From Botryllus schlosseri (taxonomy: Eukaryota), in assembly GCA_051294905.1 (NCBI GenBank), contig CM119372.1, forward strand, positions 21,206,001-21,266,000: DNA of 60,000 bases, written 5' to 3'. This document shows, piece by piece, positions 10,084 to 45,300 of this stretch. The notes under the pieces are model-generated. The model was not told where the DNA came from, ran no database searches, and was given only the letters and a program-made list of their open reading frames with translations. How positions within the stretch are numbered: the first letter of the stretch is position 1; each line of letters opens with the position of its first letter. Position numbers and translations under genes: made by a program.

Positions 10084-12209
10084 ACCATCCCGAGTTCTTA
10101 TAAAACGTAATATTTTACTTGAGGCCATTTAGCATTCGGTAGGCTAATTTACGATGCTTGGTTGCTGTGAAAGTTATTCAAAGGTAACGAAGTAGGCTAC
10201 GTATACTTCCCCGAAGTACTAAATCAGTTTATCTATAACTGTAGTATTTACTCAAGTAGATCTAATTTGCAGCTACCTACTTCGTCATATTTTGTGATTT
10301 ACTAACTTTTCGCTATTGATATTTTTGTCAAGTAGAAGTATTATGTTCTTCCAATAAGCAGGCTTGTAATGACTCGAGTCGCGATTTTTTCTTGACTCGA
10401 CTTGACTCGAGCAAATTTTTGAAATGGGCAATTGGGCATACTCACTCGACTCGACCACGTCGCAAATCGTCCGAAGGCTCACTCTACTTAGTATCAGTAT
10501 CAGTATATACATATTTTCATCATTTCAAAACACCTCAAAACTGCGATACAAAGATAGGAAGGTGTCGAAACGATTATGAGATAATTATACAGCTTATGAA
10601 ATCGCATTTGAATAAAACATTGTTCAAACACCTCTTGTTTTAAACGCAGCTCAAGTTATAACTGTTGGGTTGCATTGGCATCACATCCGATCGATGTCGC
10701 TCTTCCGCTGTCATCTTTCTAATTCAATCCAGTCTGAAATGAAAAGAAAGCAATCCGATCGCGTGTTGCAAAATGACTGGCAAACTCGGTGTACTACTAC
10801 ATTACTGCTGTTACTCAGGAAAAATTCGGAGCGAGGAACCGAGGTGTATAGTAACTCATCAGTGTGCTGAGAAAGCGTTTAGAAGTTATCTTAATGCAAC
10901 GAGTTAGTCAACCATAATCGGCCAGTTCAATTACATTTTGAATGGATTTTTTTTGCCTTTTCGAAATAGTTCTTCTCGGCGAAACTTTGCGGGTTTCCGT
11001 TACACTCCCCCTTTTGCAACATAGAATACCAGTCCTACTGTCTGAGTCCGTTATAGTGATACGCAAGTGAACCTAATGTGGGTTGAACTTCCCCCGTCGA
11101 TTATTGTACGTCAACAGCGCTATATAGCGGCGCCAAATAGAAACGGAACCATGGTGTCTGTGATAGCCTACATCACTTCGCGACCGCTAAAAGTTCGACT
11201 TGTTGGGACTGATATGTCTTGTATTATCATTAATATCATTGTACAATATCAAACATATAATGCTGCAAATGCCATTGTCGCTGTATCCCGAGTTGCAGAA
11301 AATCAGCAGGATACGCACGGCATGTTGGAATGTGTGTAAGGCAATTGAGCACATCCTGACTCATTTTCAATGCCTGTTTGCTGAGTAAGATTTGTTACAA
11401 TCGGAAAGCTAAAAAAGGAAGCAAGAGTTTTCGTGCCTTATCGAAGGAGTTTGTACGACTGAGATAGGAAGGGATCGAAAGGATTTCGAATCGGCACCGC
11501 CGTTTTTCCACTCCGCGCTATGCCGAGTACCGAGCTCATTACTTGAACATGATGACTCGAAAGTAGCTCAGTTACTCGAATCCACAACTTAATGACTAAG
11601 AAATCGAACACTCTTATAGCACTGAGATAACTAGATGTAGGCAGTTGCTGTTGCTTTTATTGAGTAACTATCGTTTATGCGCGTCCGCTATATATATATA
11701 CTGTTTTTACTGTTTTGATTATTAATTGAAATGAGACTTTTCCAACCAAGAGGTGGTGACTGGTCAGTGGTCATGATACCTTTCCAGTAATATAGTAAAT
11801 TGCACGGCACGTCAACCCAACAGCGAGACATCATTATTTCATCGAAATGTCAACCAAGTTGGTTAAGGGTATGCGGTCGGAAGTGTATATGATGCCGATG
11901 GAAGGAAAAAGGTAGGAATAAGATTGCTAAGAAGAAACTAAGAAGAAATATTTTAAAGGACATGTGCAGGAATATAAAGTATAGCTGAATAATTTTAATG
12001 TTATGACTCGCAACCAGCAGCATGGAGTTGCGTGCAACAGAAAGCGCGATGATTCTCGACTGCAATTTCTTTCGCAGAGGAATTTTTTTATTACCTTTGG
12101 ATCCGATAAGGAAGCAGTATAGACCCCACTGAGAAGTATAAATAGTTCATGGATACCTCTAGTAACGATTTAGGCACATCATCGTCACGAGCTAATCAAA
12201 ACACATGAC

Positions 12210-21300: not shown

Positions 21301-24300
21301 ATGTCAATAATATTGGTTCTTCCATAAATTACTGTATAATTTTGATCCTCTCTCCGCCCACATGACCAGAGTTAGCGATAGAGCTGGTGAACGATGATGA
21401 CTTTGAAAATGCAAGGAGGTTAATCGTTCATCGTTAAGTCATGTTCATATCACATCGATAAAATTATTTATCAGCCTAATGCCGGTGCGCACTGAATCAC
21501 TGAGATATATAAACACCGCACATCCAGTGGTTTCCAACCTTTTATGGTCGCGAGTCCATTTCCAATTTGCCGTGGCCCAGCTCCAAATTTGACAAGCTGA
21601 TTACTAGATTAAGGTCGGCAAATTTGCCCAGACTTAGTCACAGCCTATTTTGGAAGCTGACTACGTTCAACATATTCGCGAATCCCAGAATAAAGGCAAA
21701 CTACCGCCAGGTTTAGAACCACCATCATTGAATAAAGCATCCAAACGGTCTACACCAGGGGTGGGCAAACTACGGCCCGCGGGCCGCATGCGGCCCGCGA
21801 GAGTCTAAAGAAACTTATTGAAAATATTGATCAAATGCGTACTAAAAATCGAATTAATGCATAAACTTTTCCTTAGTATATTTCACCATGGTAAATCTAA
21901 GGAAGTGGGTCTCAGCCTCGGGGCCGCGTGCCCCTTGGGGTCATGAAAACATCTGAAATTGGATCGCAAAGCTGAACTTAACTGAAAATTTTTTCGCGCT
22001 TCGCGCGATTTCTTCCAATTCCTGGTTAGTGCTCTGTATTTAGTATGAATTTCATATTTAAAAATCTCTCATCAATAGTCGTAACCTTCCATGCCACCAA
22101 ACAATCCGTTAGGTTTGCTATAGCATCCTGATTGCGTTTTGTGATATGACGATAAGGGGGCGGGAAATCTACACATATAGTAGAAGCGTGTTTGAAGCTA
22201 ACATGGGTATGATGCTGTCAGCATTGTGTGTCCTGGAACTGAACCCAAAGCGGAATTAGTAAATCTATGAACTGATCACTTCTCACAGATTTAAATTTCA
22301 ATCCTGTTCTAACAATCGGGACAACTGACTTTCATCTCTATAGTTTTGACAAATTGGTTATTGAGGTCGACCAGCCTATGAAATCTCGCAATTGTTTCTG
22401 GTGCGTGTACGATATCATAGCAATATGTTTGGTTTGTTTCAAATAAGCATATATATTATCTCCCTGTCCTCACTATATAATCAATTACCAGCAATATGCC
22501 GTTTTGGTCTATGGTCCCAATTTTATGTAGTGCGGCCCGCGAATGGATTCAGATGTTGAATGCGGCCCGCGAGCTCAAAAGTTTGCCCACCCCTGGTCTA
22601 CACCGACTCTATGAATATACCGTTATCTTGTAATTGCGATTACAATTAGACATATTTCTGTAAATGAATGCTATTTTTATTTAATTTTGATCGCGGTTTT
22701 TGCGAGGCTGATAGTCCCCATATTAAAACTAATATATCTGATGCTAAATCGCGCGCTGCGCGAAGAAAAATTGCATGTAACATAAATCTGCCCAATAATA
22801 ATATTGTTTTTTTTGATTCATGAAAAGAATTATGAGCTTACTTCAAGCCTTCAAAATTCCGGACATTTGGGCATATTTTAGAAATTCCTCCCGGACGCAG
22901 TTGTAATGGTGAAATTCCGGACATGTCCGGGAAATTCCGGACGTATGGCAACCCTAGGCTAAGTGGCATTCTTCCGTTCCGTCAGACAAATTATTATCTT
23001 AGACCAGTGCTTTTCAACCTTTTTGAGCTCCGTTCGCACTTTTTTTGTAAAATAAATTTCATTCGCACAAACTAATCGAAAATTGTTATACAAAAAGAAG
23101 ATGAAGATAGGAGTAGTGAGGCTAAGGAACTTTGTTACCGTCCAATCAGAGAGCGCCACGTCATCCTAATTGCCACGCCCATTTTCATGCCCTAAGGGTA
23201 CATTCATCTGCTACGTCATCTGTGCCACATCATCAAGCGCCACGCCTATAGTGCCACATCATCCATCCATTGCTATATCATCGCTGCATTGATTGCCGCA
23301 TCTTGATACTTTTCTCAGATATTGTATTATGTGTATTTAGGACTAATATCATCCGTCCATATTTTTTAAACTTTATTTTATGTGTACAAGTTACGGTTTC
23401 TGCAGTTTCCACATTTTACGACTTATGATTGCCGCGTCAAATCTTACCTTAGCTAGAATCGACAGATTTTCTATTATGTGTATTTAGGACTATGTATTTA
23501 AATTCCTATTCAGATTATACATAAATGCGAAAACTATGATGTCTATGCAAGGCTATATTCTCCGGATAATATTATTAATATCAAAATTCTACACATCATC
23601 ACTAATTACTTAATATAAAATCCGATTTTGAGCGCTGCGACTTGATAATATGAATCCCTACGCTTCTGATGCATGATTTTTTGCGATAAGGACCCAGGTA
23701 ACATTCAGAGTCTGCAACGATTGTTTGGATATACATTATAGCAATACCCCACTAAACTATAGGCGGTTATATTACTCTATTGGTCAGAGATAACTCATCC
23801 TTCCATATTTTTAAACTTGATTTTATGTATACAAGTTACGCTCTCTGCAGCCCCACATTTTACGAATTATTTTCATTAGACGCAGGCAAGCGATTCTCCA
23901 GTTCGGAGGTACGGAAACAAATCACTCGCATGTGCGCGTTCCGAATAGTCTTGCAGAATTTTCTAAAGTCGTAACAGCTTAGTAGCATATACGCGAATCC
24001 CAAGGTGAAAATAATCGAACGAGCTATAGCCGCAGGCGTGCGATTCGCAGGGCTTTATTTATACAAACACTTTCGATGCCTGTACGCGAACCCCAGCGTT
24101 ATAACGATTAGGTCTAATTAGCACGTTCTGAAGCCGTAAATTTAGTCAACATCATTGAGATGTCCATGATTTAAATATGGTGATCGAGTGTGACAATAGC
24201 ACTCGTCAAGGTTAGACAAACATAACCTTAAACTACTCTCTACTTCACAAAATATAAAGAACGAACACCTTCGCCGCAGGTACGCGATCCTCGACGTTAT

Positions 24301-27300
24301 AATGATAGTGCCAAATTAGCCGCATGAAAGCGAGTCTAATGAATATAACGACAGACACCAAGTTAGTTGAAAAGTAAAACTAATCGTGACCGATGCAAGA
24401 CGGATTGAAACAGCGCTTTCGCTCGATTCTTGTAGTGACCACATTTCATACGGTTCAGTCCTTTTCATGTCACTAGAATAAGGGTGAATAAACCGACAGT
24501 GAAACGCCGCCGACGTCTTATAACGTAATAATGTAAGCTGCGTCGGGTGCTGCTATAATGTTAGGAGCGAATATAGTAGAAAGTCCACGTCTGGACACCT
24601 GTAAGCAGCTGCGCATACTACCGTAGTAAAACGCATAGCAGAATTCACGAAAAAGTCGATATTGCTTTGTGATGATTTTGATGTTGTTCCATACCGATTG
24701 GGAATATAGGACTCCTAATTCCTTAACTAACTACATAATCCCTAGTAACGTAGTCAGACGCATAACGGAATTTACGCAAATCGGTATTGCTCTGCGATAA
24801 TTTTGACCACTATGTTTTGATAATAACTTGCTTCCGAGAAATAGATAACATTCATTATACGTTAGATGATACTTTTCCTTTATATTCTATTATGTGTATT
24901 TAGGGCTAATGCGACATCACTATTGATCTTTTTCCTTTATATTCTATTATGTGTATTTAGGGCTAATGCGACATCACTATGTTGGCGACAGGCCTGATTT
25001 GAACACGCTAATTTTGCAAATTAAACTTATCACCCACCACGAACACTCAATGAAGAGCACCCTGGAGCACTCACATAAATGCTCCACAATTTGTGACGTA
25101 TAATATACTGAGCATATAATAAGCTGACAAAACTGATACTTGAGTACTCCGAAATGAACAAGTATTTTACCTTTACACGACGTTTTTGTAAAATGAATAC
25201 TAATGGTACGCGAATGATCATAGACTAAGCTTGCTTTCAGAGTTGGAAACTAAATGCATATGAAAATTTAACTATGTTTTCCCCTCACGCATCAGATGTA
25301 GGCCTACTCAAGTGTTTATGAGGCGGCGAAGAGTTCGAAGGTTGTTGGTATGCAAGGACGTCACATAGAATTGTGGAGTTTTCTGTAAACTATAATCCAG
25401 TGATCTATTTTCAATCACTATACTTTTATTAATCTAAACTAAGTACTGTTAGTAGGCAAATCCTAGAAAAGTATCCTCTGATAAAAGCAGGAGTAATTCG
25501 TTATCTGTGAAATAAATATATAGCGCGCAATATGAGCGGTGTTACGATGACTGACAAATACTTTGAATTAATGCATAGAAGTAGCGATTTCGAACTACGT
25601 AAAACGTTAGTCGAGCTCACGCATTTTCCATTTTCAAAAGTTGACGTTTTTTGTAAAATGAATAATAATTTTAATAAAAAATAAAAAAGAGCGAAAAATT
25701 ACATTTTATCTCGGAACGCAACAAGAAAAATCGTATGAACTTGTAAACTACTTATTTATGACATAATAATAATTCTACTTGTACACTTATTCACATTTTA
25801 TAACACTTTTAGTAATACTTAACGGTTTCAGTTTTAAATAAAACTCGGAATATAAACTAATCGAAAAATTCGGTAACCAATTTCGCGTAGGCTATGCATA
25901 CAGATGAGGGAAGTTACATCAACGCGTGTTAACTAGTTGTATTATGTAGCTTGTAATTCATGCAAGTTTCGAAACTTCTACACCGAGTCTTTTTAAAGTA
26001 GATAGAAACGAAAAACAATTACGCCTTAGCTATGCATACAAATGAGGAAAGTTCCATCAACGCGTGTTAACTAGTTGTATCGAGTTATCGAATGAGTTTT
26101 TTCCTTACATCAAAACAACTAGAATGTGTAACTACATTAAAAAACGTTCCTAACCCTTAACGCACCCGCGATAAATCGTACAAGCAACAAGTTTCGAGTA
26201 ATCGAAATCGCGCCCCCTGAATTCAAAGCTTATTTCGAGATCTAAGCTACTTTGAAAATGAGGATCCTAGGATTTGCTTGAGTTTCATCTATATTTTACA
26301 ATGCGTTTTCGCGTTCCAGAATGACTTATGTCAATGAAAAATAGCCATTGATCATGGTTTTGTTTTTGAAAGATGTCGCGATGCCGGTGAATTTTATAGT
26401 TCTTGTAAAAAGTTGTTTGTACACAATATATGTTTAAAGTAAGTCCTACGCATTCATGATTTCGTCCGAGTTCGTATTTTAGTAATATATACTAATTTAC
26501 GATAGCGCGTTTGTAACTTGTGCAAGTACAGGAATATCATAGTTCTTGAACCGTGCTCAATGCTTAATAGAGCATTTTTGCTATTTTTCATCGCCATAAG
26601 TCATTCTGGACCGCGTAAACGCATCGTACGATATAGATGAAAGTTATGCAAATCCTAGGATCCTCATTTTCAAAGTAGCTAAGATCTCGAAATAAGCTCT
26701 GACTTGCTATTCTCCTCAAAGCATGGAATTATCAAGAGTATCACCTTCGATCACTAAAGAAACGGATGAAATTATATTCGAAGCATATTCCTTGACCAGG
26801 AATTTTATCATGTACGAACTCGACGGCTCATGCGTTAAGGTAAATACGAAAGCAGAGAGAACCTTACGTCGAGTTGGGGATGAAATATTCGAGCGACATC
26901 GAACTGTCCTAAACGCAGTCTCCAAACGTCTCCGCTATTTGCACTTTTTCACATTTTATAACACCTTAAGTAGTACTTAACAGTTTTAGTTTTAAATAAA
27001 ATACGGAATATAAACTAATCGAAAAATTCGGTTTTTGGGTGCATCTGTTTTGCGGGGGCGTATAGCACGTAGCTATACATAGTCAACTTTAATAACTGAA
27101 TTACCATGCTTAACATTGAATCCCAACTCTAAACTTGATACGTAGATGTAGGACATTATGGCAATGCACCATGCTAAATTTCATCACACATCTAATGATG
27201 GAACACCTTTAAAACTAACGCAGTCGAATACCGACTTTTACGCGTATCTGTTTTGCGTGAACTTAGCATATACCTATACATAGTCAATTTTAATAGCAGA

Positions 27301-30300
27301 ATTACCGTGTTAAACATTGAATTCCCACCTTGAAAGTTGGTACGCGGTTATAGGACATTATAAAAATGCACCATACCAAATCCCATCAGACATTTCATGA
27401 TGGAACAACTTTAAAACTAACGCGGCTCTACATCGACTTTTTGCGTACATCTGTTTTGCGGGAGCGTATAGCACGTACCCATACATAGCCAACTTTAATA
27501 ACGGAATTACCATGCATTGAATCCCAACTCTAAACTTGATACGTAGTTGTAGGGCATTATGGCTATGCACCATGCTAAATTTCATCACACATCTAATGAT
27601 GGAACACCTTTGAAACTATCGCAGTCGAATACCGACTTTTACGCATATCTGTTTTTCGTGAACATAGCATATACCCATACATAGTCAATTTTAATAACAG
27701 AATTAGCATGCTAAACATTAAATTCTCACCTTGAACGTTGGTACGCAGTTGTAGGACATAATAACAATGCACCATACCGAATTTCGTCAGACATTTCATG
27801 ATGTAACACCTTCAAAACCAACGCAGTTCTATACAGACTTTTGGCTAAATCTGTTTTTCCGTAGCGTAGCACGTACCTAAACATAGTCAACTTTATTAAC
27901 GGAATTACCATGTTAATATTCGACTCCCTACCTTGAAACTCGGTACGCAGTTGTAAGACATTATGACAATGCACCATGTCAAATTTTGCAAGTACTTTAT
28001 CTTTACACGACGTTTTTTGTAAAATGAATACTAATTTTATTGAAAAAATAAAAAATAACAAAGAGCGAAAAATAACATTATATCCCGGAACGCAACAAGA
28101 AAAATCGTATGAATTTGTAAACTACTTGTTCATGACATAATAATAATTCTACTTGTACGCTTTTTCACATTTTATAACACTTTAAGTAATACTTAACAGT
28201 TTCAGTTTTAAATAAAAGACGGAATATAAACTAATCGAAAAATTCGGTAACCAATTTCGCGTAGGCTATGCATGCATACAAATGAGGAAAGTTACATCAA
28301 CGCGTGTTAAAGTAGCTGTATCGAGTTATCGAATGATTTTCTCCTTACATCAAAACAACTAGAATGTATAACTAAATTTAAAAACGTACCTAAATGAGCT
28401 CCAGGGCATTGTGATTATGCTGCATACCAAATTTCATCACACATTTCATGATGGAACAACATTAAAACTAACGCAGTTCTATAGCAACTTTTGCCTAAAT
28501 CTGTTTTCGGTAGCGTGTACATATACATAGTCAGAATTATCATGCTAATATGTGACTCCTCACCTTGAAACTTGGTACGTAGTTGTAGGACATTGTGATT
28601 ATGCAGCATACCAAATTTCCTCACGCATTTCATAATGGAACAACTTTAAAACTAACGCGGTTCTACATCGACTTTTTGCGTACATCTGTTTTGCGTGGGG
28701 GCGTATAGCACGTACCTATACATAGTTAACTTTAACAACGGAATTACCATGCTTAACATTAAATCCCAACTCGAAACTTGATACGTAGTTGTAGAACGTT
28801 ATGGCAATGCACCATGCTAAATTTCATCACACATCTAATGATGGAACACCTTTAAAACTAACGCAGTCGAATACCGACTTTTACGCATATCTGTTTTGCG
28901 TGAACATAGCATATACCTATACATAGTCAATTTTAATAGCAGAATTACCGTGTTAAACATTGAATTCCCACCTTGAAAGTTGGTACGCGGTTATAGGAGA
29001 TTATAACAATGCACCATACCAAATCCCATCACACATTTCATGATGGAACAACTTTTAAACTAACGCGGCTCTACATCGACTTTTTGCGTACATCTGTTTT
29101 GTGGGAGCGTATAGCACGTAGCCTACCCATACATAGCCAACTTTAATAACGGAATTACCATGCTTAACATTGAATCCCAACTCGAAACTTGATACGTAGT
29201 TATAGGACATTATGGCAATTCACCATGCTAAATTTCATCACACATCTAATGATGGAACACCTTTGAAACTATCGCAGTCGAATACCAACTTTTACGCATA
29301 TCTGTTTTTCGTGAACATAGCATATACCCATACATAGTCAATTTTAATAACAGAATTAGCATGCTAAACATTAAATTCTCACCTTGAACGTTGATACGCG
29401 GTTGTAGGACATAATAACAATGCACCATACCAAATTTCGTCAGACATTTCATGATGTAACACCCTTAAAACTAACGCAGTTCTATACCAACTTCGCGTGA
29501 ATCTGTTTGCGGGAGCGTAGCACGTACCTATGCGTGATCAACTTTAGTGATGGAATTACATATGTAATTAAGTTTCAACACTTTTACAATGATTCGTCTT
29601 GCTTCCTATAAAATCCCACTCGAGAAAATGCGTCGTAGGATATAGATGAAACTAGCACAACTCATCAAGACCGCTGAAAACAGTACATTTCAACATTTAG
29701 TAGCAGTAAATTTCTAGTAAAGTACAAGACGTGATGATTTCCGAGTGAGTTAAAAAGTAAGTATTGCAGGTATAGTTTACCTGAAAACCGAATACTCTGA
29801 AATAGAAGTAGATGCAGTGTAAATAGTTAATCACTTGATTAAGTTTAGTGCAAGCAGATAAAACCTATACTTGAGTAGTACAAAATGCACGAGTACTTCG
29901 CTATCGCCTCCCTCCACGTAATAAGTGTCTACGGTTTAAGACTGCTTTTACCGATACTCGTCGGTTTCAGTTTTAGATAGAATTCGGAAACCAAATAATT
30001 TCATAAACATAAGCTAATTTAATGAATTTACTCGAATGTACTATGCCGCGCTGATAAGATTAATTATAATATACTTATCATGTTACAGCGATTTTTCTAG
30101 CGTAGAAAATCTTTAAAATGTAGTAAGCAGGCCAAATGAAGATATTCGTTGAGGTGAATAAACATAAAAAATACTCTAGACTACTTTATCGGTACTTTAC
30201 AGTTACAGTTTTAGATAAAATTTGTCCCTTTCACCTATAATTACAACTCCTCGCTATCTAAACATGTTTAGAATATATTATTTGCGATGATACGAACCCG

Positions 30301-33300
30301 TGAAGTACTCAAGTTGCTTTTCGTAGGATATAGATGAAACTGACAACACTCACCAAGACCAGTGATCCACCGAAAAAAGTAAATTGTAGCAGTAAAGTCC
30401 CACTAAAGTACAAGAAGTCATGATTTCCCAGTCAGTTAAAAAGTAAGTATTGAGGTATAGTTTGGTCGAAAAAGCGAAAAACTCTGAAATAGAAGTAGAT
30501 GCAGTGTAAATAGGTAATCACTTCATTAAGTATAGCGCAAGCAGGCCAAACCTATACTTAAGTACTGCAAATGTACAAGTACTTCGCTATGTTCTCCTTC
30601 CACGTAAAAAGTGACTAGGTTTTAGAGTACTTTATCGGTACTCGACAGTTTCAGTGTTAGATAAAATTTGGTAAGACTTTAAATTTTAAAGTAGTTTGAG
30701 CTTACGTTTGTATCACCTTGACAAGTAACATTATCAGACATGAAAATGATACTATCACCGAATATAGAAGTTAACACGCGTCAATGTGTTTCGGAATTCA
30801 CGAGAAATTGCTTACTAAGAGAAGTATATTGTTGTATACATAATAGTGGAGAGAATATTTTAAATGTAGTAAGCAGGCCGATGGGTATTCGTTTAGTTGT
30901 ATAGGCATAAAAAACATTCCCGCGCGCGTCTTAGTATTAGGTGTTTTGTTTAAGAGCGCGCGGGAATGTTTTTTATGCCTATACAACTAAACGAATACCC
31001 ATCGGCCTGCTTACTACATTTTAAATATTCTCTCCACTATTATGTATACAACAATATACTTCTCTTAGTAAGCAATTTCTCGTGAATTCCGAAACACATT
31101 GACGCGTGTTAACTTCTATATTCGGTGATAGTATCATTTTCATGTCTGATAATGTTACTTGTCAAGGTGATACAAACGTAAGCTCAAACTACTTTAAAAT
31201 TTAAAGTCTTACCAAATTTTATCTAACACTGAAACTGTCGAGTACCGATAAAGTACTCTAAAACCTAGTCACTTTTTACGTGGAAGGAGAACATAGCGAA
31301 GTACTTGTACATTTGCAGTACTTAAGTATAGGTTTGGCCTGCTTGCGCTATACTTAATGAAGTGATTACCTATTTACACTGCATCTACTTCTATTTCAGA
31401 GTTTTTCGCTTTTTCGACCAAACTATACCTCAATACTTACTTTTTAACTGACTGGGAAATCATTACTTCTTGTACTTTAGTGGGACTTTACTGCTACAAT
31501 TTACTTTTTTCAGTGGATCACTGGTCTTGGTGAGTGTTGTCAGTTTCATCTATATCCTACGAAAAGCAACTTGAGTACTTCACGGGTTCGTATCATCGCA
31601 AATAATATATTCTAAACATGTTTAGATAGCGAGGAGTTGTAATTATAGGTGAAAGGGACAAATTTTATCTAAAACTGTAACTGTAAAGTACCGATAAAGT
31701 AGTCTAGAGTATTTTTTATGTTTATTCACCTCAACGAATATCTTCATTTGGCCTGCTTACTACATTTTAAAGATTTTCTACGCTAGAAAAATCGCTGTAA
31801 CATGATAAGTATATTATAATTAATCTTATCAGCGCGGCATAGTACATTCGAGTAAATTCATTAAATTAGCTTATGTTTATGAAATTATTTGGTTTCCAAA
31901 TTCTATCTAAAACTGAAACCGACGAGTATCGGTAAAAGCAGTCTTAAACCGTAGACACTTATTACGTGGAGGGAGGCGATAGCGAAGTACTCGTGCATTT
32001 TGTACTACTCAAGTATAGGTTTTATCTGCTTGCACTAAACTTAATCAAGTGATTAACTATTTACACTGCATCTACTTCTATTTCAGAGTATTCGGTTTTC
32101 AGGTAAACTATACCTGCAATACTTACTTTTTAACTCACTCGGAAATCATCACGTCTTGTACTTTACTAGAAATTTACTGCTACTAAATGTTGAAATGTAC
32201 TGTTTTCAGCGGTCTTGATGAGTTGTGCTAGTTTCATCTATATCCTACGACGCATTTTCTCGAGTGGGATGTTATAGGAAGCAAGACGAATCATTGTAAA
32301 AGTGTTGAAACTTAATTACATATGTAATTCCATCACTAAAGTTGATCACGCATAGGTACGTGCTACGCTCCCGCAAACAGATTCACGCGAAGTTGGTATA
32401 GAACTGCGTTAGTTTTAAGGGTGTTACATCATGAAATGTCTGACGAAATTTGGTATGGTGCATTGTTATTATGTCCTACAACCGCGTATCAACGTTCAAG
32501 GTGAGAATTTAATGTTTAGCATGCTAATTCTGTTATTAAAATTGACTATGTATGGGTATATGCTATGTTCACGAAAAACAGATATGCGTAAAAGTTGGTA
32601 TTCGACTGCGATAGTTTCAAAGGTGTTCCATCATTAGATGTGTGATGAAATTTAGCATGGTGAATTGCCATAATGTCCTATAACTACGTATCAAGTTTCG
32701 AGTTGGGATTCAATGTTAAGCATGGTAATTCCGTTATTAAAGTTGGCTATGTATGGGTAGGCTACGTGCTATACGCTCCCACAAAACAGATGTACGCAAA
32801 AAGTCGATGTAGAGCCGCGTTAGTTTAAAAGTTGTTCCATCATGAAATGTGTGATGGGATTTGGTATGGTGCATTGTTATAATCTCCTATAACCGCGTAC
32901 CAACTTTCAAGGTGGGAATTCAATGTTTAACACGGTAATTCTGCTATTAAAATTGACTATGTATAGGTATATGCTATGTTCACGCAAAACAGATATGCGT
33001 AAAAGTCGGTATTCGACTGCGTTAGTTTTAAAGGTGTTCCATCATTAGATGTGTGATGAAATTTAGCATGGTGCATTGCCATAACGTTCTACAACTACGT
33101 ATCAAGTTTCGAGTTGGGATTTAATGTTAAGCATGGTAATTCCGTTGTTAAAGTTAACTATGTATAGGTACGTGCTATACGCCCCCACGCAAAACAGATG
33201 TACGCAAAAAGTCGATGTAGAACCGCGTTAGTTTTAAAGTTGTTCCATTATGAAATGCGTGAGGAAATTTGGTATGCTGCATAATCACAATGTCCTACAA

Positions 33301-36300
33301 CTACGTACCAAGTTTCAAGGTGAGGAGTCACATATTAGCATGATAATTCTGACTATGTATATGTACACGCTACCGAAAACAGATTTAGGCAAAAGTTGCT
33401 ATAGAACTGCGTTAGTTTTAATGTTGTTCCATCATGAAATGTGTGATGAAATTTGGTATGCAGCATAATCACAATGCCCTGGAGCTCATTTAGGTACGTT
33501 TTTTAATTTAGTTATACATTCTAGTTGTTTTGATGTAAGGAGAAAATCATTCGTTAACTCGATACAGCTACTTTAACACGCGTTGATGTAACTTTCCTCA
33601 TTTGTATGCATGCATAGCCTACGCGAAATTGGTTACCGAATTTTTCGATTAGTTTATATTCCGTCTTTTATTTAAAACTGAAACTGTTAAGTATTACTTA
33701 AAGTGTTATAAAATGTGAAAAAGTGTACAAGTAGAATTATTATTATGTCATGAACAAGTAGTTTACAAATTCATACGATTTTTCTTGTTGCGTTCCGGGA
33801 TATAATGTTATTTTTCGCTCTTTGTTATTTTTTATTTTTTCAATAAAATTAGTATTCATTTTACAAAAAACGTCGTGTAAAGATAAAGTACTTGCAAAAT
33901 TTGACATGGTGCATTGTCATAATGTCTTACAACTGCGTACCGAGTTTCAAGGTAGGGAGTCGAATATTAACATGGTAATTCCGTTAATAAAGTTGACTAT
34001 GTTTAGGTACGTGCTACGCTACGGAAAAACAGATTTAGCCAAAAGTCTGTATAGAACTGCGTTGGTTTTGAAGGTGTTACATCATGAAATGTCTGACGAA
34101 ATTCGGTATGGTGCATTGTTATTATGTCCTACCACTGCGTACCAACGTTCAAGGTGAGAATTTAATGTTTAGCATGCTAATTCTGTTATTATTATTGACT
34201 ATGTATGGGTATATGCTATGTTCACGAAAAACAGATATGCGTAAAAGTCGGTATTCGACTGCGATAGTTTCAAAGGTGTTCCATCATTAGATGTGTGATG
34301 AAATTTAGCATGGTGCATAGCCATAATGCCCTACAACTACGTATCAAGTTTAGAGTTGGGATTCAATGCATGGTAATTCCGTTATTAAAGTTGGCTATGT
34401 ATGGGTACGTGCTATACGCTCCCGCAAAACAGATGTACGCAAAAAGTCGATGTAGAGCCGCGTTAGTTTTAAAGTTGTTCCATCATGAAATGTCTGATGG
34501 GATTTGGTATGGTGCATTTTTATAATGTCCTATAACCGCGTACCAACTTTCAAGGTGGGAATTCAATGTTTAACACGGTAATTCTGCTATTAAAATTGAC
34601 TATGTATAGGTATATGCTAAGTTCACGCAAAACAGATACGCGTAAAAGTCGGTATTCGACTGCGTTAGTTTTAAAGGTGTTCCATCATTAGATGTGTGAT
34701 GAAATTTAGCATGGTGCATTGCCATAATGTCCTACATCTACGTATCAAGTTTAGAGTTGGGATTCAATGTTAAGCATGGTAATTCAGTTATTAAAGTTGA
34801 CTATGTATAGCTACGTGCTATACGCCCCCGCAAAACAGATGCACCCAAAAACCGAATTTTTCGATTAGTTTATATTCCGTATTTTATTTAAAACTAAAAC
34901 TGTTAAGTACTACTTAAGGTGTTATAAAATGTGAAAAAGTGCAATTAGCGGAGACGTTTGGAGACTGCGTTTAGGACAGTTCGATGTCGCTCGAATATTT
35001 CATCCCCAACTCGACGTAAGGTTCTCTCTGCTTTCGTATTTACCTTAACGCATGAGCCGTCGAGTTCGTACATGATAAAATTCCTGGTCAAGGAATATGC
35101 TTCGAATATAATTTCATCCGTTTCTTCAGTGATCGAAGGTGATACTCTTGATAATTCCACGCTTTGAGGAGAATAGCAAGTCAGAGCTTATTTCGAGATC
35201 TTAGCTACTTTGAAAATGAGGATCCTAGGATTTGCATAACTTTCATCTATATCGTACGATGCGTTTACGCGGTCCAGAATGACTTATGGCGATGAAAAAT
35301 AGCAAAAATGCTCTATTAAGCATTGAGCACGGTTCAAGAACTATGATATTCCTGTACTTGCACAAGTTACAAACGCGCTATCGTAAATTAGTATATATTA
35401 CTAAAATACGAACTCGGACGAAATCATGAATGCGTAGGACTTACTTTAAACATATATTGTGTACAAACAACTTTTTACAAGAACTATAAAATTCTCCGGC
35501 ATCGCGACATCTTTCAAAAACAAAACCATGATCAATGGCTATTTTTCATTGACATAAGTCATTCTGGAACGCGAAAACGCATTGTAAAATATAGATGAAA
35601 CTCAAGCAAATCCTAGGATCCTCATTTTCAAAGTAGCTTAGATCTCGAAATAAGCTTTGAATTCAGGGGGCGCGATTTCGATTACTCGAAACTTGTTGCT
35701 TGTACGATTTATCGCGGGTGCGTTAAGGGTTAGGAACGTTTTTTTAATGTAGTTACACATTCTAGTTGTTTTGATGTAAGGAAAAAACTCATTCGATAAC
35801 TCGATACAACTAGTTAACACGCGTTGATGGAACTTTCCTCATTTGTATGCATAGCCTAGGCGTAATTGTTTTTCGTTTCTATCTACTTTAAAAAGACTCG
35901 GTGTAGAAGTTTCGAAACTTGCATGAATTACAAGCTACATAATACAACTAGTTAACACGCGTTGATGTAACTTCCCTCATCTGTATGCATAGCCTACGCG
36001 AAATTGGTTACCGAATTTTTCGATTAGTTTATATTCCGAGTTTTATTTAAAACTGAAACCGTTAAGTATTACTAAAAGTGTTATAAAATGTGAATAAGTG
36101 TACAAGTAGAATTATTATTATGTCATAAATAAGTAGTTTACAAGTTCATACGATTTTTCTTGTTGCGTTCCGAGATAAAATGTAATTTTTCGCTCTTTTT
36201 TATTTTTTATTAAAATTATTATTCATTTTACAAAAAACGTCAACTTTTGAAAATGGAAAATGCGTGAGCTCGACTAACTTTTTACGTAGTTCGAAATCGC

Positions 36301-39300
36301 TACTTCTATGCATTAATTCAAAGTATTTGTCAGTCATCGTAACACCGCTCATATTGCGCGCTATCTATTTATTTCACAGATAACGAATTACTCCTGCTTT
36401 TATCAGAGGATACTTTTCTAGGATTTGCCTACTAACAGTACTTAGTTTAGATTAATAAAAGTATAGTGATTGAAAATAGATCACTGGATTATAGTTTACA
36501 GAAAACTCCACAATTCTATGTGACGTCCTTGCATACCAACAACCTTCGAACTATTCGCCGCCTCATAAACACTTGAGTAGGCCTACATCTGATGCGTGAG
36601 GGGAAAACATAGTTAAATTTTCATATGCATCTAGTTTCCAACTCTGAAAGCAAGCTTAGTCTATGATCATTCGCGTACCATTAGTATTCATTTTACAAAA
36701 ACGTCGTGTAAAGGTAAAATACTTGTTCATTTCGGAGTACTCAAGTATCAGTTTTGTCAGCTTATTATATGCTCAGTATATTATACGTCACAAATTGTGG
36801 AGCATTTATGTGAGTGCTCTAGGGTGCTCTTCATTGAGTGTTCGTGGTGGGTGATAAGTTTAATTTGCAAAATTAGCGTGTTCAAATCAGGCCTGTCGCC
36901 AACATAGTGATGTCGCATTAGCCCTAAATACACATAATAGAATATAAAGGAAAAGTATCATCTAACGTATAATGAACGTTATCTATTTCTCGGAAGCAAG
37001 TTATTATCAAAACATAGTGGTCAAAATTATCGCAGAGCAATACCGATTTGCGTAAATTCCGTTATGCGTCTGACTACGTTACTAGGGATTATGTAGTTAG
37101 TTAAGGAATTAGGAGTCCTATATTCCCAATCGGTATGGAACAACATCAAAATCATCACAAAGCAATATCGACTTTTGCGTGAATTCTGCTATGCGTTTTA
37201 CTACGGTAGTATGCGCAGCTGCTTACAGGTGTCCAGACGTGGACTTTCTACTATATTCGCTCCTAACATTATAGCAGCACCCGACGCAGCTTACATTATT
37301 ACGTTATAAGACGTCGGCGGCGTTTCACTGTCGGTTTATTCACCCTTATTCTAGTGACATGAAAAGGACTGAACCGTATGAAATGTGGTCACTACAAGAA
37401 TCGAGCGAAAGCGCTGTTTCAATCCGTCTTGCATCGGTCACGATTAGTTTTACTTTTCAACTAACTTGGTGTCTGTCGTTATATTCATTAGACTCGCTTT
37501 CATGCGGCTAATTTGGCACTATCATTATAACGTCGGGGATCGCGTACCTGCGGCGAAGGTGTTCGTTCTTTATATTTTGTGAAGTAGAGAGTAGTTTAAG
37601 GTTATGTTTGTCTAACCTTGACGAGTGCTATTGTCACACTCGATCACCATATTTAAATCATGGACATCTCAATGATGTTGACTAAATTTACGGCTTCAGA
37701 ACGTGCTAATTAGACCTAATCGTTATAACGCTGGGGTTCGCGTACAGGCATCGAAAGTGTTTGTATAAATAAAGCCCTGCGAATCGCACGCCTGCGGCTA
37801 TAGCTCGTTCGATTATTTTCACCTTGGGATTCGCGTATATGCTACTAAGCTGTTACGACTTTAGAAAATTCTGCAAGACTATTCGGAACGCGCACATGCG
37901 AGTGATTTGTTTCCGTACCTCCGAACTGGAGAATCGCTTGCCTGGGTCTAATGAAAATAATTCGTAAAATGTGGGGCTGCAGAGAGCGTAACTTGTATAC
38001 ATAAAATCAAGTTTAAAAATATGGAAGGATGAGTTATCTCTGACCAATAGAGTAATATAACCGCCTATAGTTTAGTGGGGTATTGCTATAATGTATATCC
38101 AAACAATCGTTGCAGACTCTGAATGTTACCTGGGTCCTTATCGCAAAAAATCATGCATCAGAAGCGTAGGGATTCATATTATCAAGTCGCAGCGCTCAAA
38201 ATCGGATTTTATATTACGTAATTAGTGATGATGTGTAGAATTTTGATATTAATAATATTATCCGGAGAATATAGCCTTGCATAGACATCATAGTTTTCGC
38301 ATTTATGTATAATCTGAATAGGAATTTAAATACATAGTCCTAAATACACATAATAGAAAATCTGTCGATTCTAGCTAAGGTAAGATTTGACGCGGCAATC
38401 ATAAGTCGTAAAATGTGGAAACTGCAGAAACCGTAACTTGTACACATAAAATAAAGTTTAAAAAATATGGACGGATGATATTAGTCCTAAATACACATAA
38501 TACAATATCTGAGAAAAGTATCAAGATGCGGCAATCAATGCAGCGATGATATAGCAATGGATGGATGATGTGGCACTATAGGCGTGGCGCTTGATGATGT
38601 GGCACAGATGACGTAGCAGATGAATGTACCCTTAGGGCATGAAAATGGGCGTGGCAATTAGGATGACGTGGCGCTCTCTGATTGGACGGTAACAAAGTTC
38701 CTTAGCCTCACTACTGATAGGCCTATACTTAACAACATTTTGTTCAGGTATGCAAAAAATTGGCTGCTATGTAGCTTAAGCTATCAAGTGTCTCATTAAA
38801 AAGGCAACTTTTTTCGCTCGTTTTGCTTTCAATTATGTCACTAAAACCCTTCTCGGCCAAACAACGTTGCTGGGAATTTGAACAAAAACGTCTACCAGTG
38901 CTTGGATAACCAGGTCTTAAAATCTGTTCTGCATTCCTATCCAAAATACAGCGTATTTTTCGCGAGTGAAAAATGCTTGCTGGCAGAAATCGTATTTGAG
39001 AGCTGACACAAAGGTCCCGCGAGGCTCCAGTTTGTCGAAAGGATGAAAAACCCACATGTTTGTGTTGAGGCTTCTGCTTTATTTCTTTGTAACATAAGGT
39101 GCAAAACGATCAGGGAGAGTAGGCACATTAGAGCTCGCTACCTCATGATACGTTGCTCCAACTTCTTTCTCGCAAGTTTATGAAAAGAGCAAATAACTCA
39201 CGCTACTCTGTGTTCTACTCTTTAGCTCAATCTAACTTGAGACTTCATGACAGTTTAATAACGGTAAAGAAGCTTTTAGACTACCACCAAAATCTGAGTT

Positions 39301-42300
39301 TTTGTGGCATCTCGCGACCCCAGCCTCACCCATGAAAATGAATTGATTTTTAATATTACAGTTGTATGCTACGATTTTACCGGCATGTATGAAATACGGA
39401 ACGCGCACACCACAATTCTACCCAACACAGCTCTACAAAACATTTTTAAATTTTAAATTTAATTTAAATTTTAAATTAGGGCGAATTCAATTCCTCTGCG
39501 TATCGCTGTTGTACCACTGTCTACTCAGATTGCAAGAACGGGACTATTCCGTGCCGACAACGGAGCATATCCAATCCATCTCGAAAAATTTGACCATCCA
39601 GCATCGGTCATTTTTAGAACGAGGTTTTGTCGCCGCTTATGTTTTTGGCACCGCATTTTATCAGCGGTTTGTTCGCCAAAACTTTACGTCTTCATGTGCC
39701 CCGACGCAGAAGGGGTTGGCCTCGAAATGAATGAGTCACATAGGCCTAAACTCGCTCGTTGCACACCCCTACAGTAACTCGTTCATCCCAACGGTCTTCG
39801 GCCATGTTTTCCAGAAAAAACAGTCGGACAAATCTTATCATGAATTCCCATGATAAAGCCATATTTCATGCGTGGCTCGCTTATTGACTACAGTACCCAA
39901 CACAGTGATCTTCTATATGTAAAAACTATCGCATGCATATTAACAGATAGCTCTGGCACCGTGTCGACCCAAAATTATACCCTTTGCGGTCCACACTTTA
40001 ATAACCCTTGAAGGGGTAAAAATTTGCGTTACAGTAACTCGCAGATGAGAGTCTGTAATGATGGTATTTACTACTATCCTCGTGCCTCGCGCAAATCGAA
40101 CCGTTATTACAAAAATATGATGATTGTTTAGCGAAAGAAAGCAGAAAGTCAATTTGGCGTGATTTTTCTAGCCGGTCGTAGGCTCGGACGAGCTGATATA
40201 CTGTATGTCTGCCACTATAGAGATTGTAGATCTGTACTGCCACTATACACCAGCTTCCAAACCAGGCTTTTGGTTACGTAATAATTTGACTGCGGGAATA
40301 CTAATTCACTACGGCATGTGAGAGGTACGATTAGTGGTGCGTCGTATTAAGTTTTTACAATTGCGTCGCAACTACAAAAGTTACACTGATCTTAAATTTC
40401 CTATTAGGTTTATTTGAATTATTTCGCGTCAGAAAAGTTAACAATTACTCAAGATTTTCATTAGCACTTGATCCGGATTTTCATTCGTACCATTTGCACT
40501 ACCTTTGTCATTCGTTGTTGATCCGGATTTTCATTCGCACTATTCGCACCACCTTCGTCATTCGCACTGTACTTATTTTCATTCGCACTAGTGCGAACCG
40601 TCACACAGGTTGAAAAGCACTGTCTTAGACTATATGTGACGATTTCTGTTTGTGACGTCAATGTGCAACTTTCTCGTTGCGTGATTGAAGAAATCGATAT
40701 TGATCTTTGAAAAACATCGGATGTTACTATTCTGGTTGGATTTATATTCAAGAATACTGCTCAACTGTATTCTACCTGAAACTTACGATTATTTTCGATG
40801 TACACGTCATTTCGTAATTGATTTCAGACATTCGAGTCATTGCCAGACATATGAACTTGAATTTAGGCATGATATCAAATGAATTTGGGATTAATATTTA
40901 CCAGCTCACATGTGCGCACACTGTGGACATTGGACAATCTCAATTTTAGTATTGAGTGTGTCCCCGTATTTGCTGTCCCGCAGGGTCTTAAAACCAGTCC
41001 ATAAAGGCTCCATAAAGGCAACAGCTATGCCTGTTCATATTAAGCATAAGCAGATAAGCATATTACATATCAGTTTACGAGGCAGGGTGTGTTTTGTTCT
41101 TGGCATTACGTGTTTTCTGACATCGTGAGGTGTTGCATATGCTCAAATCCACTCACATATGGCGATCGGGCTATACATATTCGTAACGATGCCTTCATCT
41201 GACAGGCCAAGTCGGTAACGTTATCACTAACCGCAACGTGGATAGACTGGAGTTTGAAAGACTTGTGGTGAGCTGTCGTCGATTGTTTCATGCTGGATAT
41301 AGTAATATCAATCGCAAAATTTTCCTAACAGATTCTTCTTGAGCCTTTGAATCATTGCATATGTTCGAGATTTAGGTGATAATGTCGACATGAAAAAACG
41401 TTATGATTCCATTGTTATATCACTGGCTTCTAGTTCACTAGTTCCAATATATTTTCTTCCATATATCTCATATCTAGGGAGTTTGGAATTAGAATGCAGA
41501 CACCTAGGCATTTGTAGCGATTATTATCCAGACTACAACGATAATTATCCAAACTACAACGCGTTGCACGTAAGTTCGCGACAGAGTTCACGTCTGCTTT
41601 CAGGATAATGCCAAAGTATTCATGAAAACCAAGGGGGTTTCGAAAGATATGCAAAATCGGATATTGCGCTGGTACGACTACTCGTGGTCTCGGGGAATCT
41701 TACGTGGAGCGGCTGATGTCAATGCTCTCGGAATGATACCCGACACTCTGAAAGTGGAGCTAGCCATAAGAGTCAATATGGACACATTGCGAAAAGTACG
41801 TATCCGGATTTGCGAATACGAATACGAAAACATTATGTTAAGCGCTTGATGCAATAATTGTCGGTTGAATTTCGCCATTTTACGTCACGGAAGTTCTAAC
41901 TTGCTAATCAGATTGTTTCGAGACAAATTCGACCATAGTCTAACTTCGAATAAATGATGACCTATATAAAGTGCACGTCTAGATTTCAAGTCACGAAATT
42001 AATTTATTCGCGTGAGCCGACATACATCACACCCCTCGAAATTTGTGATAAACGGTTATAGGTGTAATGCATACATACCGCGTCAATTTGTGGAATTTTG
42101 AACAGTAGTATGGGATCAATGCAGAAAAACCGCTTTGCATTTGAACTGTTGCGAAATTTCTGAGAGCAAATAATATAATGTAGCTAGTAGCGCATCCATC
42201 TCATGTCGGCATTGGTACGCTGTATCTCTTTCAGAGACTTCTACGCACTTAAAAAAACGTTTACATTTCGTCAGGTTTCAATATTCAAGCTGGTACAGCC

Positions 42301-45300
42301 GGAATTTTTGTACGCGCTAGTGTTGAAGATGAAATCGTTCGTATTCACGCCGGGAGATCTGATTTGCAGGAAAGGAGAAGTGGCGAGAGAAATGTTCATA
42401 ATAAATCACGGCGTTCTCAACGTTGTCAAGTGAGGCTAACCTGTTTTCACTATAGAACAGGTTCGAATCGATCATTGTCAATTGCGGGAATACACATCTT
42501 CTCTCCTGTCAACATGTCGATAGAACCGCTAAACAGCGATTGCTTTCGGAAATGACAGTGGATCTATTTGCCTCATGCCCCATTCATTATGTTGGAAATG
42601 AGATGTCATGTAATCTTTTTGTTGAAAGCTTATTGTCATTGTGTATTTCAGTCAGTCGCAATCTCCATGATCTTGATATTCTGTAATAACATTATACAAG
42701 ACAGCAGAGGTGGTTAAAGTAATCAGTGATGATACTCAAATAGAGGTAAAAGTGACGCCGTAAATTTCTACTCAATTAAAAGTAGAAGTAGTGGTTCCGA
42801 AGATATGTCGGAACTATTTCACGTGGAAGTAAAATGAAGGTAAAAAACACTGCGAGAGGTAGAATCACGGAATGTCCTTCGACAAATTACAGACGACTTC
42901 CATGCACGCGCTCTTCCACCATCATCAGTCTCTCTCGCTTTTTATACGCGCGTAAATTGGTCTTAACTGCCGACAGTCTTAGCGCGGCTCACCATCACTC
43001 TGGGCTTTTTGAAACACTGCTAAGGCATAGCGAGGATAGCGAATTTCACTCGTGAAAGTGGGCAAACATATCGCTGAGCTATTTCTTCTTTTTTACAAAA
43101 TCCGATGCATTAAATGTAAGTATAGTTTGCCTAAAATATTAAGTAAAAGTAGTCGTAATATAAAATCGTAAACACTTGAGTAAGTACTGCATAATGGCAA
43201 AAATACAGAAATTACAGAAAAGTAAAGTTACTTCGTTACTGTCCACCTCTGCAACATGGAGCATTAAAGTATACGTGAGGTAGAGTTGCACTTAAAACAA
43301 ACTGTGTTTTAAACAGAGGCCTTTAAAAAATTTGTGTTTTTTTAAGTTGTAAAATTATACCATGATTGTGTAAATACTTTCCAAAAAACAGCATGTTGTA
43401 TTAGTCAACGGACAATTACCACTCGTTATAGCCGCCGTATGTCGATATGGGATGGTTGGAACCCTCAAAATAGTCGGTTTAACATTAATAGTACAGATAT
43501 TTGGTCAAAGGAGCTTTATTTACCCTATATTTTCAATCCACTATGACGTCATGGCTTAAAAAAACAAATAAAACAATTTAAAACATGTTTTAAATTAAGG
43601 CCTTGTTTTAAACACGTTTGCTTTGATTTTTGTTTTAAATGCAACCCCACGTGGTGGCGTTCGATTGATCGTGACGAAGTTTAGGCTACTATTTCGACAA
43701 GGTCCTTGATGTCGATTAGGACGAACCCATATTTCAGTGACAGCGGTCAAGTGGTAGCAAGTCTCGGGGCTGGCGACTTTTTCGGCGAAATAGGCGTGCT
43801 GAATATCGTAAATGGTGTTAACAAGCGTGTCGCTGACGTCGTGTCGGTCGGATATTCCGAAGTCTTCTCGTTGGCCGGAAAAGATGTGCTTAAAGCAATG
43901 GAATACTATCCTGGTAATGGTTATACCTCTCTATATAATTAACATACCTGAAAATGTTTCATCTGTTTGATCACCAGAAGCGAAGAATTTGCTGATGATA
44001 TATGGTCGGCAGAGATTCAATCAAACCCAAAACTCTGATAACCTAGGACCAGCAGAAACTGCCAATGGAATATCTGCCAATGCGAAAAGATTTTCGAGGT
44101 AAAATGTCGTGTTATATTATAATTAATCATCCCTCGCTCAAGCATTCCCTCAAACAGCTCTTCCGGTTCTGAAACATCGCTTTTTAGCGAAAGGATAAGA
44201 AATAGTCTGAATGATGAGAGGGGCGTGCGGAAAAAGGCAAGTGCCAGGTAAATGGGGGTTTCTTCCTTGATAAATCTAAGCGAATTCCAAGTCAGGTTGA
44301 CGCCTTCAAAGTGAGTAAACAAAAGGCCACTTACAAATTGGAAATTAAGAATACTTCTGGGATCCGTGGTTTGAGAAAGACGCGATTCTAAGGACGGAGA
44401 TAATAAAGTTAGCTGATCCGGAAGAATGCTAATCATGTGATTAAGTACTGTTAATCGCGACGCATAAAGTTGGAAAAGGTTAAGCGCGATGATTATAGTC
44501 GAGGTGTCCCGAGTTTTCAATCAAGTGGGGTTATCTGTTGCATCATAATCCAAAAACAATATGTTGAATGAAACAGCAGCTTGCTGATAACGATACTGCA
44601 ACTGTTAATAGGAAAGTACGGTTCAGCTAAGAAACGGATAATAGAATATTCATATCGCTCTGAAATGGTGAGTACATACTTCGTTTATTATTTAGTGAAG
44701 CCATTACCCAGAAGGCAATCAGCACGGTCATTATCGGAAATACTTTCGCGTAGAAAAGGTACACAGTTTTTATAGATAACTAATTGACTATAGTTATCTG
44801 TAGTTAGTTCCGGTTTGTTGAATTATGAGATTAAAACTAACTTTATGCGCTGCGATCAACCGGTTTCCTTAATCCTGGGTTGAAAAATCCTGACGAACGT
44901 GATAATCGACTTTATTGCTAATCCAACTCTATTATCTCCGTCCTTATCTAATCTAGTCCCGCCTCGACAGACTTGGCGCTGTACTGCTATAATGCGAAAT
45001 TCAGATCATTTATAAATCTTCACACCTGTTCAGTTCAGGTTAGGTGGCGAGATAGCGTAGTGGCTTAATCCACAGCTGCAACACCAATGAATGAGTTCGA
45101 GTCCTTCCGAGGTCGACTCCAGTATTCCTACCTAAGCGTTGGAGTTTTATCTAGAATCCTCCTCGCCATCTGATCCGTGTAAGCGGTGTCTAATAAAAAT
45201 AGCCTATAGAAGTGGGCCGTGCTACAAGTCGGCGTAGCTACGGAATAAAAATGAAACAAACACCACGAATACCACAAAACAACATGTTCAGATTACCATT

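Follow-up and report, generated by a model that had tools for sequence, protein, structure and literature searches.

The DNA stretch analysed here comprises 60,000 nucleotides of the Botryllus schlosseri genome (GenBank assembly GCA_051294905.1, contig CM119372.1, positions 21,206,001 to 21,266,000 of the forward strand; hereafter designated the window, with positions counted from its first letter). It contains a gene-less element of 15,604 bp (23112-38715) that is a near-perfect palindrome, carries ends of the Maverick/Polinton type and interrupts a hAT-like transposon. We consider it likely that this element belongs to a family of about 130 gene-less, whole-length palindromic Maverick/Polinton derivatives, which would be non-autonomous fold-back satellites. 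The element and its target-site duplication (TSD) are made up of the following features, given with the evidence for each; TIR denotes a terminal inverted repeat.

23106..23111, no strand: TSD GATAGG, left copy (junction sequence; empty paralogous sites).
23112..30933, + strand: left palindrome arm (repeat search, DNA fold).
23112..23117, + strand: terminal (AGT)2 motif (same motif at both ends of an autonomous Maverick; named as a Maverick end motif in PMC8097293).
23118..23141, + strand: hypervariable end segment (varies between copies about 99% identical, same at both ends of one copy).
23142..23320, + strand: conserved subterminal block with CCAATC..., CCACGTC, TAATTGCCACGCC and repeated CACATCATC-like words (homologous to the TIR of an autonomous Maverick).
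24873..24980, + strand: 57-bp tandem repeat of 1.9 units, the copy number of which is the chief asymmetry between the arms (repeat search).
27032..29559, + strand: degenerate 411/202-bp tandem repeats of the left arm (their mirror image lies at about 32324-34851, in the right arm).
30934..30950, no strand: apex loop of 17 nt, adjoining the GC-rich stem CCCGCGCGCG (DNA fold).
30951..38715, - strand: right palindrome arm, the reverse complement of the left one, ending with ACTACT (repeat search).
38716..38721, no strand: TSD GATAGG, right copy (junction sequence).

A repeat search of the window resolved the arms into three colinear inverted blocks (26139-30927/30956-35744, 4,789 nt; 23112-24923/36904-38715, 1,812 nt; 24924-26144/35740-36960, 1,221 nt), each with 99-100% complementarity, and when a 1-nt bulge is allowed, the pairing of the arms reaches 30933/30951, leaving a loop of 17 nt. 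DNA folding of the central 102 nt gave -46.8 kcal/mol, as compared with -9.8 ± 2.3 kcal/mol for shuffled sequences (z, -16.5), and none of 200 shuffles folded as well. The two arms differ by an extra unit of the 57-bp tandem repeat in one of them, by a 1-nt indel, and by 20 substitutions per 5,246 compared columns in their outer 5.5 kb. The element starts with AGTAGT and ends with ACTACT, (AGT)2 being composed of short tandem units, and the junctions read ...GATAGG/AGTAGT... on the left and ...ACTACT/GATAGG... on the right, giving the 6-bp TSD that characterizes Mavericks/Polintons. The inverted ends of these elements are also found here in an extreme form, in which the entire element is TIR. 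The original prediction, made from the letters of the window, of reverse-complementary arms around a 17-nt spacer and of AGTAGT/ACTACT termini flanked by an exact GATAGG duplication is thereby confirmed at the arms and at both junctions.

The longest stop-to-stop frame in the arm encodes 131 aa (27726-28121, minus strand). A Pfam scan of 45 frames of at least 45 aa yielded none at the cut-off (best E-value, 0.02), an Rfam search of the element matched 0 families, and the Maverick gene set (protein-primed PolB, rve integrase, ATPase, protease, and capsid proteins) was not found in the window element. Because no frame exceeds 131 aa and none matches Pfam, the element can only be a non-autonomous derivative and not a Maverick proper. 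The earlier claim that it has no genes and no open reading frame over about 110 aa therefore holds as to the genes and is slightly off as to the size; apart from such small numbers, all that it states as fact is borne out.

The palindrome is inserted in a second transposon, the two parts of which form its flanks.

22998..23005, no strand: 8-bp TSD TCTTAGAC, left copy, of the host hAT-like element.
23006..23111, + strand: left part of the host hAT-like non-autonomous element, the TIR of which starts with CAGTGCTTTTCAACC at 23006.
38722..40624, + strand: right part of the host hAT-like element, ending with GGTTGAAAAGCACTG at 40624.
40625..40632, no strand: 8-bp TSD TCTTAGAC, right copy, of the host hAT-like element.

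The 8-bp TSD and the short TIRs (CAGTG.../...CACTG) expected of a hAT element are intact at 22998-23020 and 40610-40632, so that the split hAT element of the original prediction was recovered on both sides of the insertion. Without the insert, the host element measures about 2 kb, and none of the six frames in 38744-40760 attained a Pfam cut-off, so that no hAT transposase was identified; it is regarded as a non-autonomous copy. Two uninterrupted hAT-like paralogs contain a single GATAGG followed directly by the right-flank sequence of the window, which demonstrates the empty site that had been predicted to carry one GATAGG. In the whole genome, 1,433 first-look candidates were obtained for the host hAT-like family, with an identity of 98-100% in the 40 scored; this abundance and uniformity suggest recent activity of the hAT-like family.

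The palindrome is likewise not a single occurrence. In the 495.5-Mb assembly (219 contigs), the terminal 300 nt gave 991 first-look candidates, the 40 scored being 96-100% identical, and a 25-nt subterminal motif matched 266 places with at most two mismatches (132 forward and 134 reverse; reversed control, 0), so that the family is estimated at roughly 130 copies. Among the 100 motif places listed, 74 form 37 plus/minus pairs with a median length of 15,520 bp (interquartile range, 14,520-16,783 bp; extremes, 6,998 and 36,242 bp), and 27 of these 37 pairs fall within 14-18 kb, a clustering that may reflect common descent alone. All 30 fetched ends start with AGTAGT. Nine of 11 end pairs are flanked by perfect 6-bp TSDs, all of them different (the chance of a perfect match being 1/4096 per pair), one pair matches at five of the six positions, and one, on contig 8, has no TSD. 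Further copies with different 6-bp TSDs, for which the original prediction had suggested a search with the terminal sequence, thus do exist.

Besides the window element, nine of the approximately 130 copies were read through, and seven of the nine were palindromic over most of their length (15.5-24.0 kb). Four of them, measuring 15.5-15.6 kb, are whole-length palindromes with the apex of the window element and are 99% identical to it. The original prediction had inferred an element in which one half was copied back on itself and which integrated as a unit. One apex is common to five copies or more, which shows that the palindrome transposes as a palindrome; palindromy is a heritable trait of the family, and copy-back did not itself produce the insertion at this site. 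Palindromy extends to longer copies (21.3, 21.5, and 24.0 kb), whose arms measure 8.6 to about 12 kb and are 99.5-100% alike. In the 24.0-kb copy, the window-type apex region is present in both orientations in each arm, with an inner palindrome centred near position 8003 of the copy, its mirror image near 16240, and the outer centre at 12120. This copy is a palindrome of a truncated palindrome, and fold-back has hence occurred more than once.

Two copies depart from this pattern. The 17.1-kb copy (C2:37884274-37901377) has palindromic arms, one side of which is broken by a 3.4-kb insertion, an arm difference left unmirrored. The insertion contains an open frame of 670 aa (L041:3499-5508) with no Pfam family; as the insertion is one-sided, the frame was treated as nested foreign DNA. 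The copy on contig 8 (C8:19518934-19528810) is rearranged and lacks a TSD, and the 262 nt on each side of it are the same arm fragment (positions 2047-2306) in inverted orientation. The palindrome at this locus reaches past the ends of the element, as nesting on the same axis.

An autonomous Maverick with the same ends is present in the same genome. A genome search with PF04665 (A32-type packaging ATPase) gave 67 matches, all in open frames; these range from 96 to 274 aa, the majority being 205-274 aa, and fall into at least three frame sizes. Searches with PF03175 and PF00770 gave no matches, and as their controls were likewise silent, they are uninformative. Around one A32 match, 23 kb were read, and the bounds of the element were set from the repeat boundary and the sequence itself. 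It is a Maverick/Polinton of 17,749 bp (C4:11821006-11838754; hereafter the C4 Maverick), reading TATATC/AGTAGT...ACTACT/TATATC, with frames that Pfam assigns to the A32 ATPase (E, 6.9e-9), to an rve integrase (1.8e-12) with Chromo (2.7e-8), and to BIR (1.9e-18), in addition to other frames that match no Pfam family. Its polymerase-like frame spans 1,209 aa or more. Pfam alone is weak for this frame (Pox_F12L; E, 0.0043), and searches of PDB sequences and NCBIfam gave nothing relevant; its polymerase-like identity is based on an Atlas feature search, in which 18 of the 30 nearest matches were PF03175 clusters (top score, 0.97). The BIR (inhibitor-of-apoptosis) gene adjoins the left end of the C4 Maverick (L051:4945-5577, minus strand). 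Its right third consists of long tandem repeats (L052:6764-10000, L053:1-1560), the copy number of which varies between copies; by blastn, they are not similar to the 411-bp repeats in the arm of the palindrome.

The TIR of the C4 Maverick, about 130 nt, aligns with the palindrome end: AGTAGT is followed by a variable stretch and then by CCAATC..AGA..G.CCACGTC..C.TAATTGCCACGCC, with a near-identical subterminal block of about 45 nt common to both. The Maverick/Polinton ends of the original prediction are hence borne out by an autonomous element that shares the (AGT)2 termini, is flanked by a 6-bp TSD, and has a subterminal block homologous to that of the palindrome, and this element, with its polymerase-like, ATPase, and integrase frames, is also the autonomous Maverick sharing the terminus that had been looked for in the genome.

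The ends common to the two kinds of element have an unusual structure. Directly after AGTAGT, both Mavericks and palindromes carry a hypervariable stretch of about 13-25 nt (in the C4 Maverick, L051:4012-4035), and the next 45 nt are almost invariant. Nucleotides 7-30 differ sharply between palindromes that are otherwise 99% alike, with at least nine variants among 30 ends, and the two ends of one palindrome agree, 10 of 11 pairs being identical over 45 nt and the remaining one having a single mismatch. The variants look modular (e.g. ...GATCC..., ...AATCG..., ...TTATACGCC...). Nine further autonomous left ends all start with AGTAGT and are equally variable; two of the nine (L058, L065) have three AGT units in place of two, and such (AGT)3 ends would be expected from slippage during slide-back initiation. 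Variants recur across the two kinds of element. The left end of the C4 Maverick is the same as palindrome end L009 over the first 21 nt, and its right end resembles the L013/L022 palindrome type, so that this autonomous copy has unlike variants at its two ends. Other Maverick left ends match palindrome ends over 15 nt (L061 with L030), over 16 nt (L062 and L064 with L029), and in a 15-nt block (L065 with L013). Judging from the alignments of these ends, a common pool of hypervariable ends serves both the autonomous and the palindromic copies. The exact end variant of the window element has 39 matches in the genome at no more than two mismatches.

One copy joins the two kinds of sequence in a single element. 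At C1:28789162-28803833 lies a palindrome of 14,672 bp with the TSD CCCTGC, the exact end type of the window element, and arms 99.6% alike. The outer 1.67 kb of each arm is Maverick left end (identity, 95.4% over 1,456 nt), and the arm continues into the repeats and apex of the palindrome family at 96-98% identity. This chimera indicates that Maverick and palindrome sequences recombine and that the product becomes symmetric again. A 211-aa BIR frame is open in both of its arms (L054:1054-1686; L055:5709-6341), and the chimera thus carries two copies of a possible anti-apoptosis gene.

The symmetry of the arms was analyzed quantitatively over 5,246 gap-free columns in both arms of five of the approximately 130 copies, all of the 15.6-kb type. 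The left and right arms differ at 20, 6, 17, 3, and 8 columns in the respective copies, and all 54 of these columns are private to one arm, none being common to copies. At 60 other columns, which vary between the copies, left equals right in every one of the five. Collectively, the private differences between arms and the mirrored differences between copies show that mutations separating the lineages were copied to the other arm before the lineages spread, and that resting copies decay. Moreover, the window copy and the copies on C29 and C10, about 99% alike, have three different end variants, each identical at both ends of its copy.

Independent sequence data were also consulted. Sequence words from the apex region were found in 20 rows of sequencing runs, spanning nine studies and labelled as organisms A, B, and C and a seawater metagenome, and contigs from two organism-A studies cover the bins that contain the apex. 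Runs X3 and X14 (organisms B and C) gave no cover over the apex bins, which counts neither for nor against the structure. Contigs of organisms B and C in the same two runs match the arm at 95% or more, and, on such matches, the family or parts of it may be common to related species.

Together, these observations lead us to the following explanation. The palindrome is likely to be a non-autonomous element that depends on Mavericks: the Maverick integrase, and probably also the protein-primed polymerase, would act in trans on its ends. An origin of the palindromes by fold-back is rather probable and fits both the nested palindrome and the mirrored differences between copies. A one-ended molecule, either a truncated replication product or a broken copy, would fold back and copy itself, thereby regaining a second end and hence mobility, and repetition of this step would produce palindromes of palindromes. 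Among defective derivatives, palindromes would be selected because the end is the sole requirement in cis. In each cycle, a displaced single strand might snap back into a full hairpin, or the nascent strand might turn at the apex, so that one arm is re-made or corrected from the other and a new end variant arising at one end becomes symmetric. That the arms are homogenized in such a replicative snap-back intermediate, and not by host gene conversion, is a tentative proposal that may well be wrong. Kapitonov and Jurka reportedly proposed in 2006 a single-stranded 'racket' intermediate for Polintons, and panhandle repair of adenovirus ends is known; both processes would work best with arms of this kind. 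It is doubtful that the size of the element is held by packaging, which its size alone suggests.

A more elaborate version can be imagined, in which hairpin satellites replicate by turning round at the apex on a protein-primed replicon. Nucleotides 7-30 would then record an arms race, in which helpers alter the end segment read by the terminal protein or integrase and satellites recapture new ends by template switching, and a length near that of the helper would be kept by riding Maverick capsids as defective interfering (DI) particles. We regard this version as a long shot; if true, the palindromes would represent DNA 'DI genomes' that, for the first time, had become fixed as a family of transposons.

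Several results weigh against the proposed derivation from Mavericks by fold-back. The similarity of the window arm to the one Maverick copy read is confined to about 200 nt of the end, and a blastn comparison between the arm and 20 kb at the Maverick locus yielded no match at E 1e-3. The original prediction of a non-autonomous Maverick satellite formed by copying one half back on itself is accordingly retained as to the satellite; the arm, unlike the Maverick copy read past about 200 nt, is not simply half of the genome of that copy. None of the 67 A32 matches lies inside the listed pairs with the end variant of the window, and a helper with exactly this end was not found among them. Nine of about 130 copies were read and five compared by arm, all of the latter in the 15.6-kb group. 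The contigs of the independent studies are very short, no listed piece bridges the apex, and no spanning read was seen. Finally, host gene conversion or fold-back break repair could yield the same mirrored pattern without a Maverick polymerase.

This last point amounts to an alternative that is unlikely yet deserves to be taken seriously, in which the ends and the integration are of Maverick type and the host makes and keeps the palindrome, by fold-back-primed break repair and intrachromosomal gene conversion; the Maverick polymerase would have no role, and the element would move only when the integrase acts on its ends. Mirrored differences and nested palindromes are equally expected from gene conversion and fold-back repair, and the contig-8 locus, with 262 nt of inverted arm on both sides and no TSD, looks like a chromosomal rearrangement and not like an insertion. 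However, resting copies gather private arm differences (3 to 20 per 5,246 columns), so that conversion is not continuous in place, and a symmetric swap of the terminal 13-25 nt in copies otherwise 99% identical needs recopying of the tip, a step that a free molecule, linear or hairpin, undergoes more easily. Furthermore, rve integrases are not known to excise DNA, and a copying step would be needed regardless. The same shared ends could also serve a different function, if the palindromes were host-kept or incidental sources of long hairpin RNA, the small RNAs from which would silence Mavericks through these ends, with mobility being secondary. If transcribed, a perfect hairpin of 7.8 kb would suit Dicer ideally as a substrate, and the ends are indeed common to palindromes and Mavericks, but the arm has only about 200 nt in common with the Maverick copy read, and the different TSD at each site shows spread by transposition; we consider this reading highly improbable.

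Apart from its ends, the element has classic foldback anatomy, namely, long inverted arms, internal degenerate tandem repeats, and no genes, and might be taken for a Foldback-type cut-and-paste transposon of another superfamily with Maverick-like ends by chance. The (AGT)2 tips, the 6-bp TSD, the subterminal block of about 45 nt, the shared end variants, and the chimera all tie it to Mavericks, however, and no other transposase was found in the copies examined, making such an identity very unlikely. Dada and IS3EU, superfamilies with 6-bp TSDs, were considered as well and were dropped once the Maverick ends had been matched. There is, lastly, the question of a fold-back artefact of assembly, since long-read assembly is known to go wrong by producing long perfect palindromes and no spanning read was seen here. 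Against it, a single hAT-like element supplies both flanks, one half on each side, with an exact GATAGG duplication and empty sites to match, 20 substitutions and two indels distinguish the arms, and about 130 copies lie on many contigs with TSDs of their own; cover of the apex bins by the organism-A contigs points in the same direction. What excludes an artefact, leaving it a practically negligible probability, is the evidence of flanks, empty sites, differing arms, and copies with individual TSDs, and not that of reads.

Derivation from Mavericks by fold-back, the explanation we prefer, places the element between several known systems. In PMC8097293 (Barreat and Katzourakis), Maverick end motifs are given as (AG)3 or (AGT)2 with perfect 6-bp TSDs, and intact vertebrate Mavericks as 12,723-24,620 bp long (mean, 16,862 bp) with TIRs of 46-1,447 bp. 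By these figures, the window element resembles autonomous Mavericks/Polintons (polintoviruses) in its (AGT)2/(ACT)2 motif, 6-bp TSD, size, and homologous subterminal block, but it is gene-less, and its TIRs are 7.8 kb each as against the 46-1,447 bp reported there. Milder inverted duplication of Maverick ends is documented in butterflies, where, according to bioRxiv 10.1101/2025.02.07.637071, TIRs of about 2 kb duplicate the hexon and adenain genes; Maverick ends can thus expand in this way, although the butterfly elements, as described there, are still coding and are not whole-length palindromes. Tlr1 of Tetrahymena (PMC5499653) comprises elements that are large, have long and complex inverted ends, and are sometimes regarded as non-autonomous polintons; it is similar to the window element in size and in its ends but differs in having many genes, and is now treated as a polinton-like virus family and not as gene-less palindromes. 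Snap-back genomes, as defined in the review PMC13506859, arise by full-length reverse-complementary copying into a highly symmetric palindrome. Snap-back and copy-back defective viral genomes of this sort share with the window element the full-length reverse-complementary structure, the two identical ends, and helper dependence, the last being proposed here, but they are free, belong mostly to RNA viruses, and arise during infection, whereas the palindrome is an integrated, heritable, multicopy DNA family, most of whose sequence is not recognizably derived from the helper (as judged from the one Maverick copy compared).

Palindromic incomplete genomes of adenoviruses are a nearer parallel. Foldback elements, as represented by Drosophila FB, have a TSD of 9 bp. 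They are like the palindrome in their long inverted arms, degenerate tandem repeats, little coding capacity, and variable copy length, and unlike it in the TSD (6 bp in the window), the Maverick-shared ends, and the arms, which here are far longer and of nearly unique sequence. In its working, the element is like a non-autonomous Maverick; in appearance, it is like a Foldback element or a snap-back defective genome. A search of full-text literature, with subscription papers and Repbase outside its scope, found no description of palindromic or of any gene-less Maverick satellites. What is new here, at the level of sequence, is gene-less palindromes tied to resident Mavericks by their ends, their end variants, and a chimera.

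Elsewhere in the window, the frame at 42191-42433 (+ strand) resembles, by eye, part of a cyclic-nucleotide-binding domain and probably belongs, as one of its exons, to a host gene for a channel or kinase.

For genome annotation, the palindromes form a repeat class of considerable size, which pipelines will label wrongly or split up. To our knowledge, the replication of Mavericks/Polintons has been inferred from their genes alone, and protein priming, slide-back, and the 'racket' intermediate have never been observed. The approximately 130 gene-less palindromes offer natural evidence on these steps, in the form of re-symmetrized arms, swapped ends, and re-folding after truncation; they would show which few hundred bases are enough in cis, and they speak for a step of fold-back or snap-back. 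Should packaging or interference with their helpers occur, the palindromes would link the parasitism among transposons known from MITE-like elements to the defective interfering genomes of viruses.

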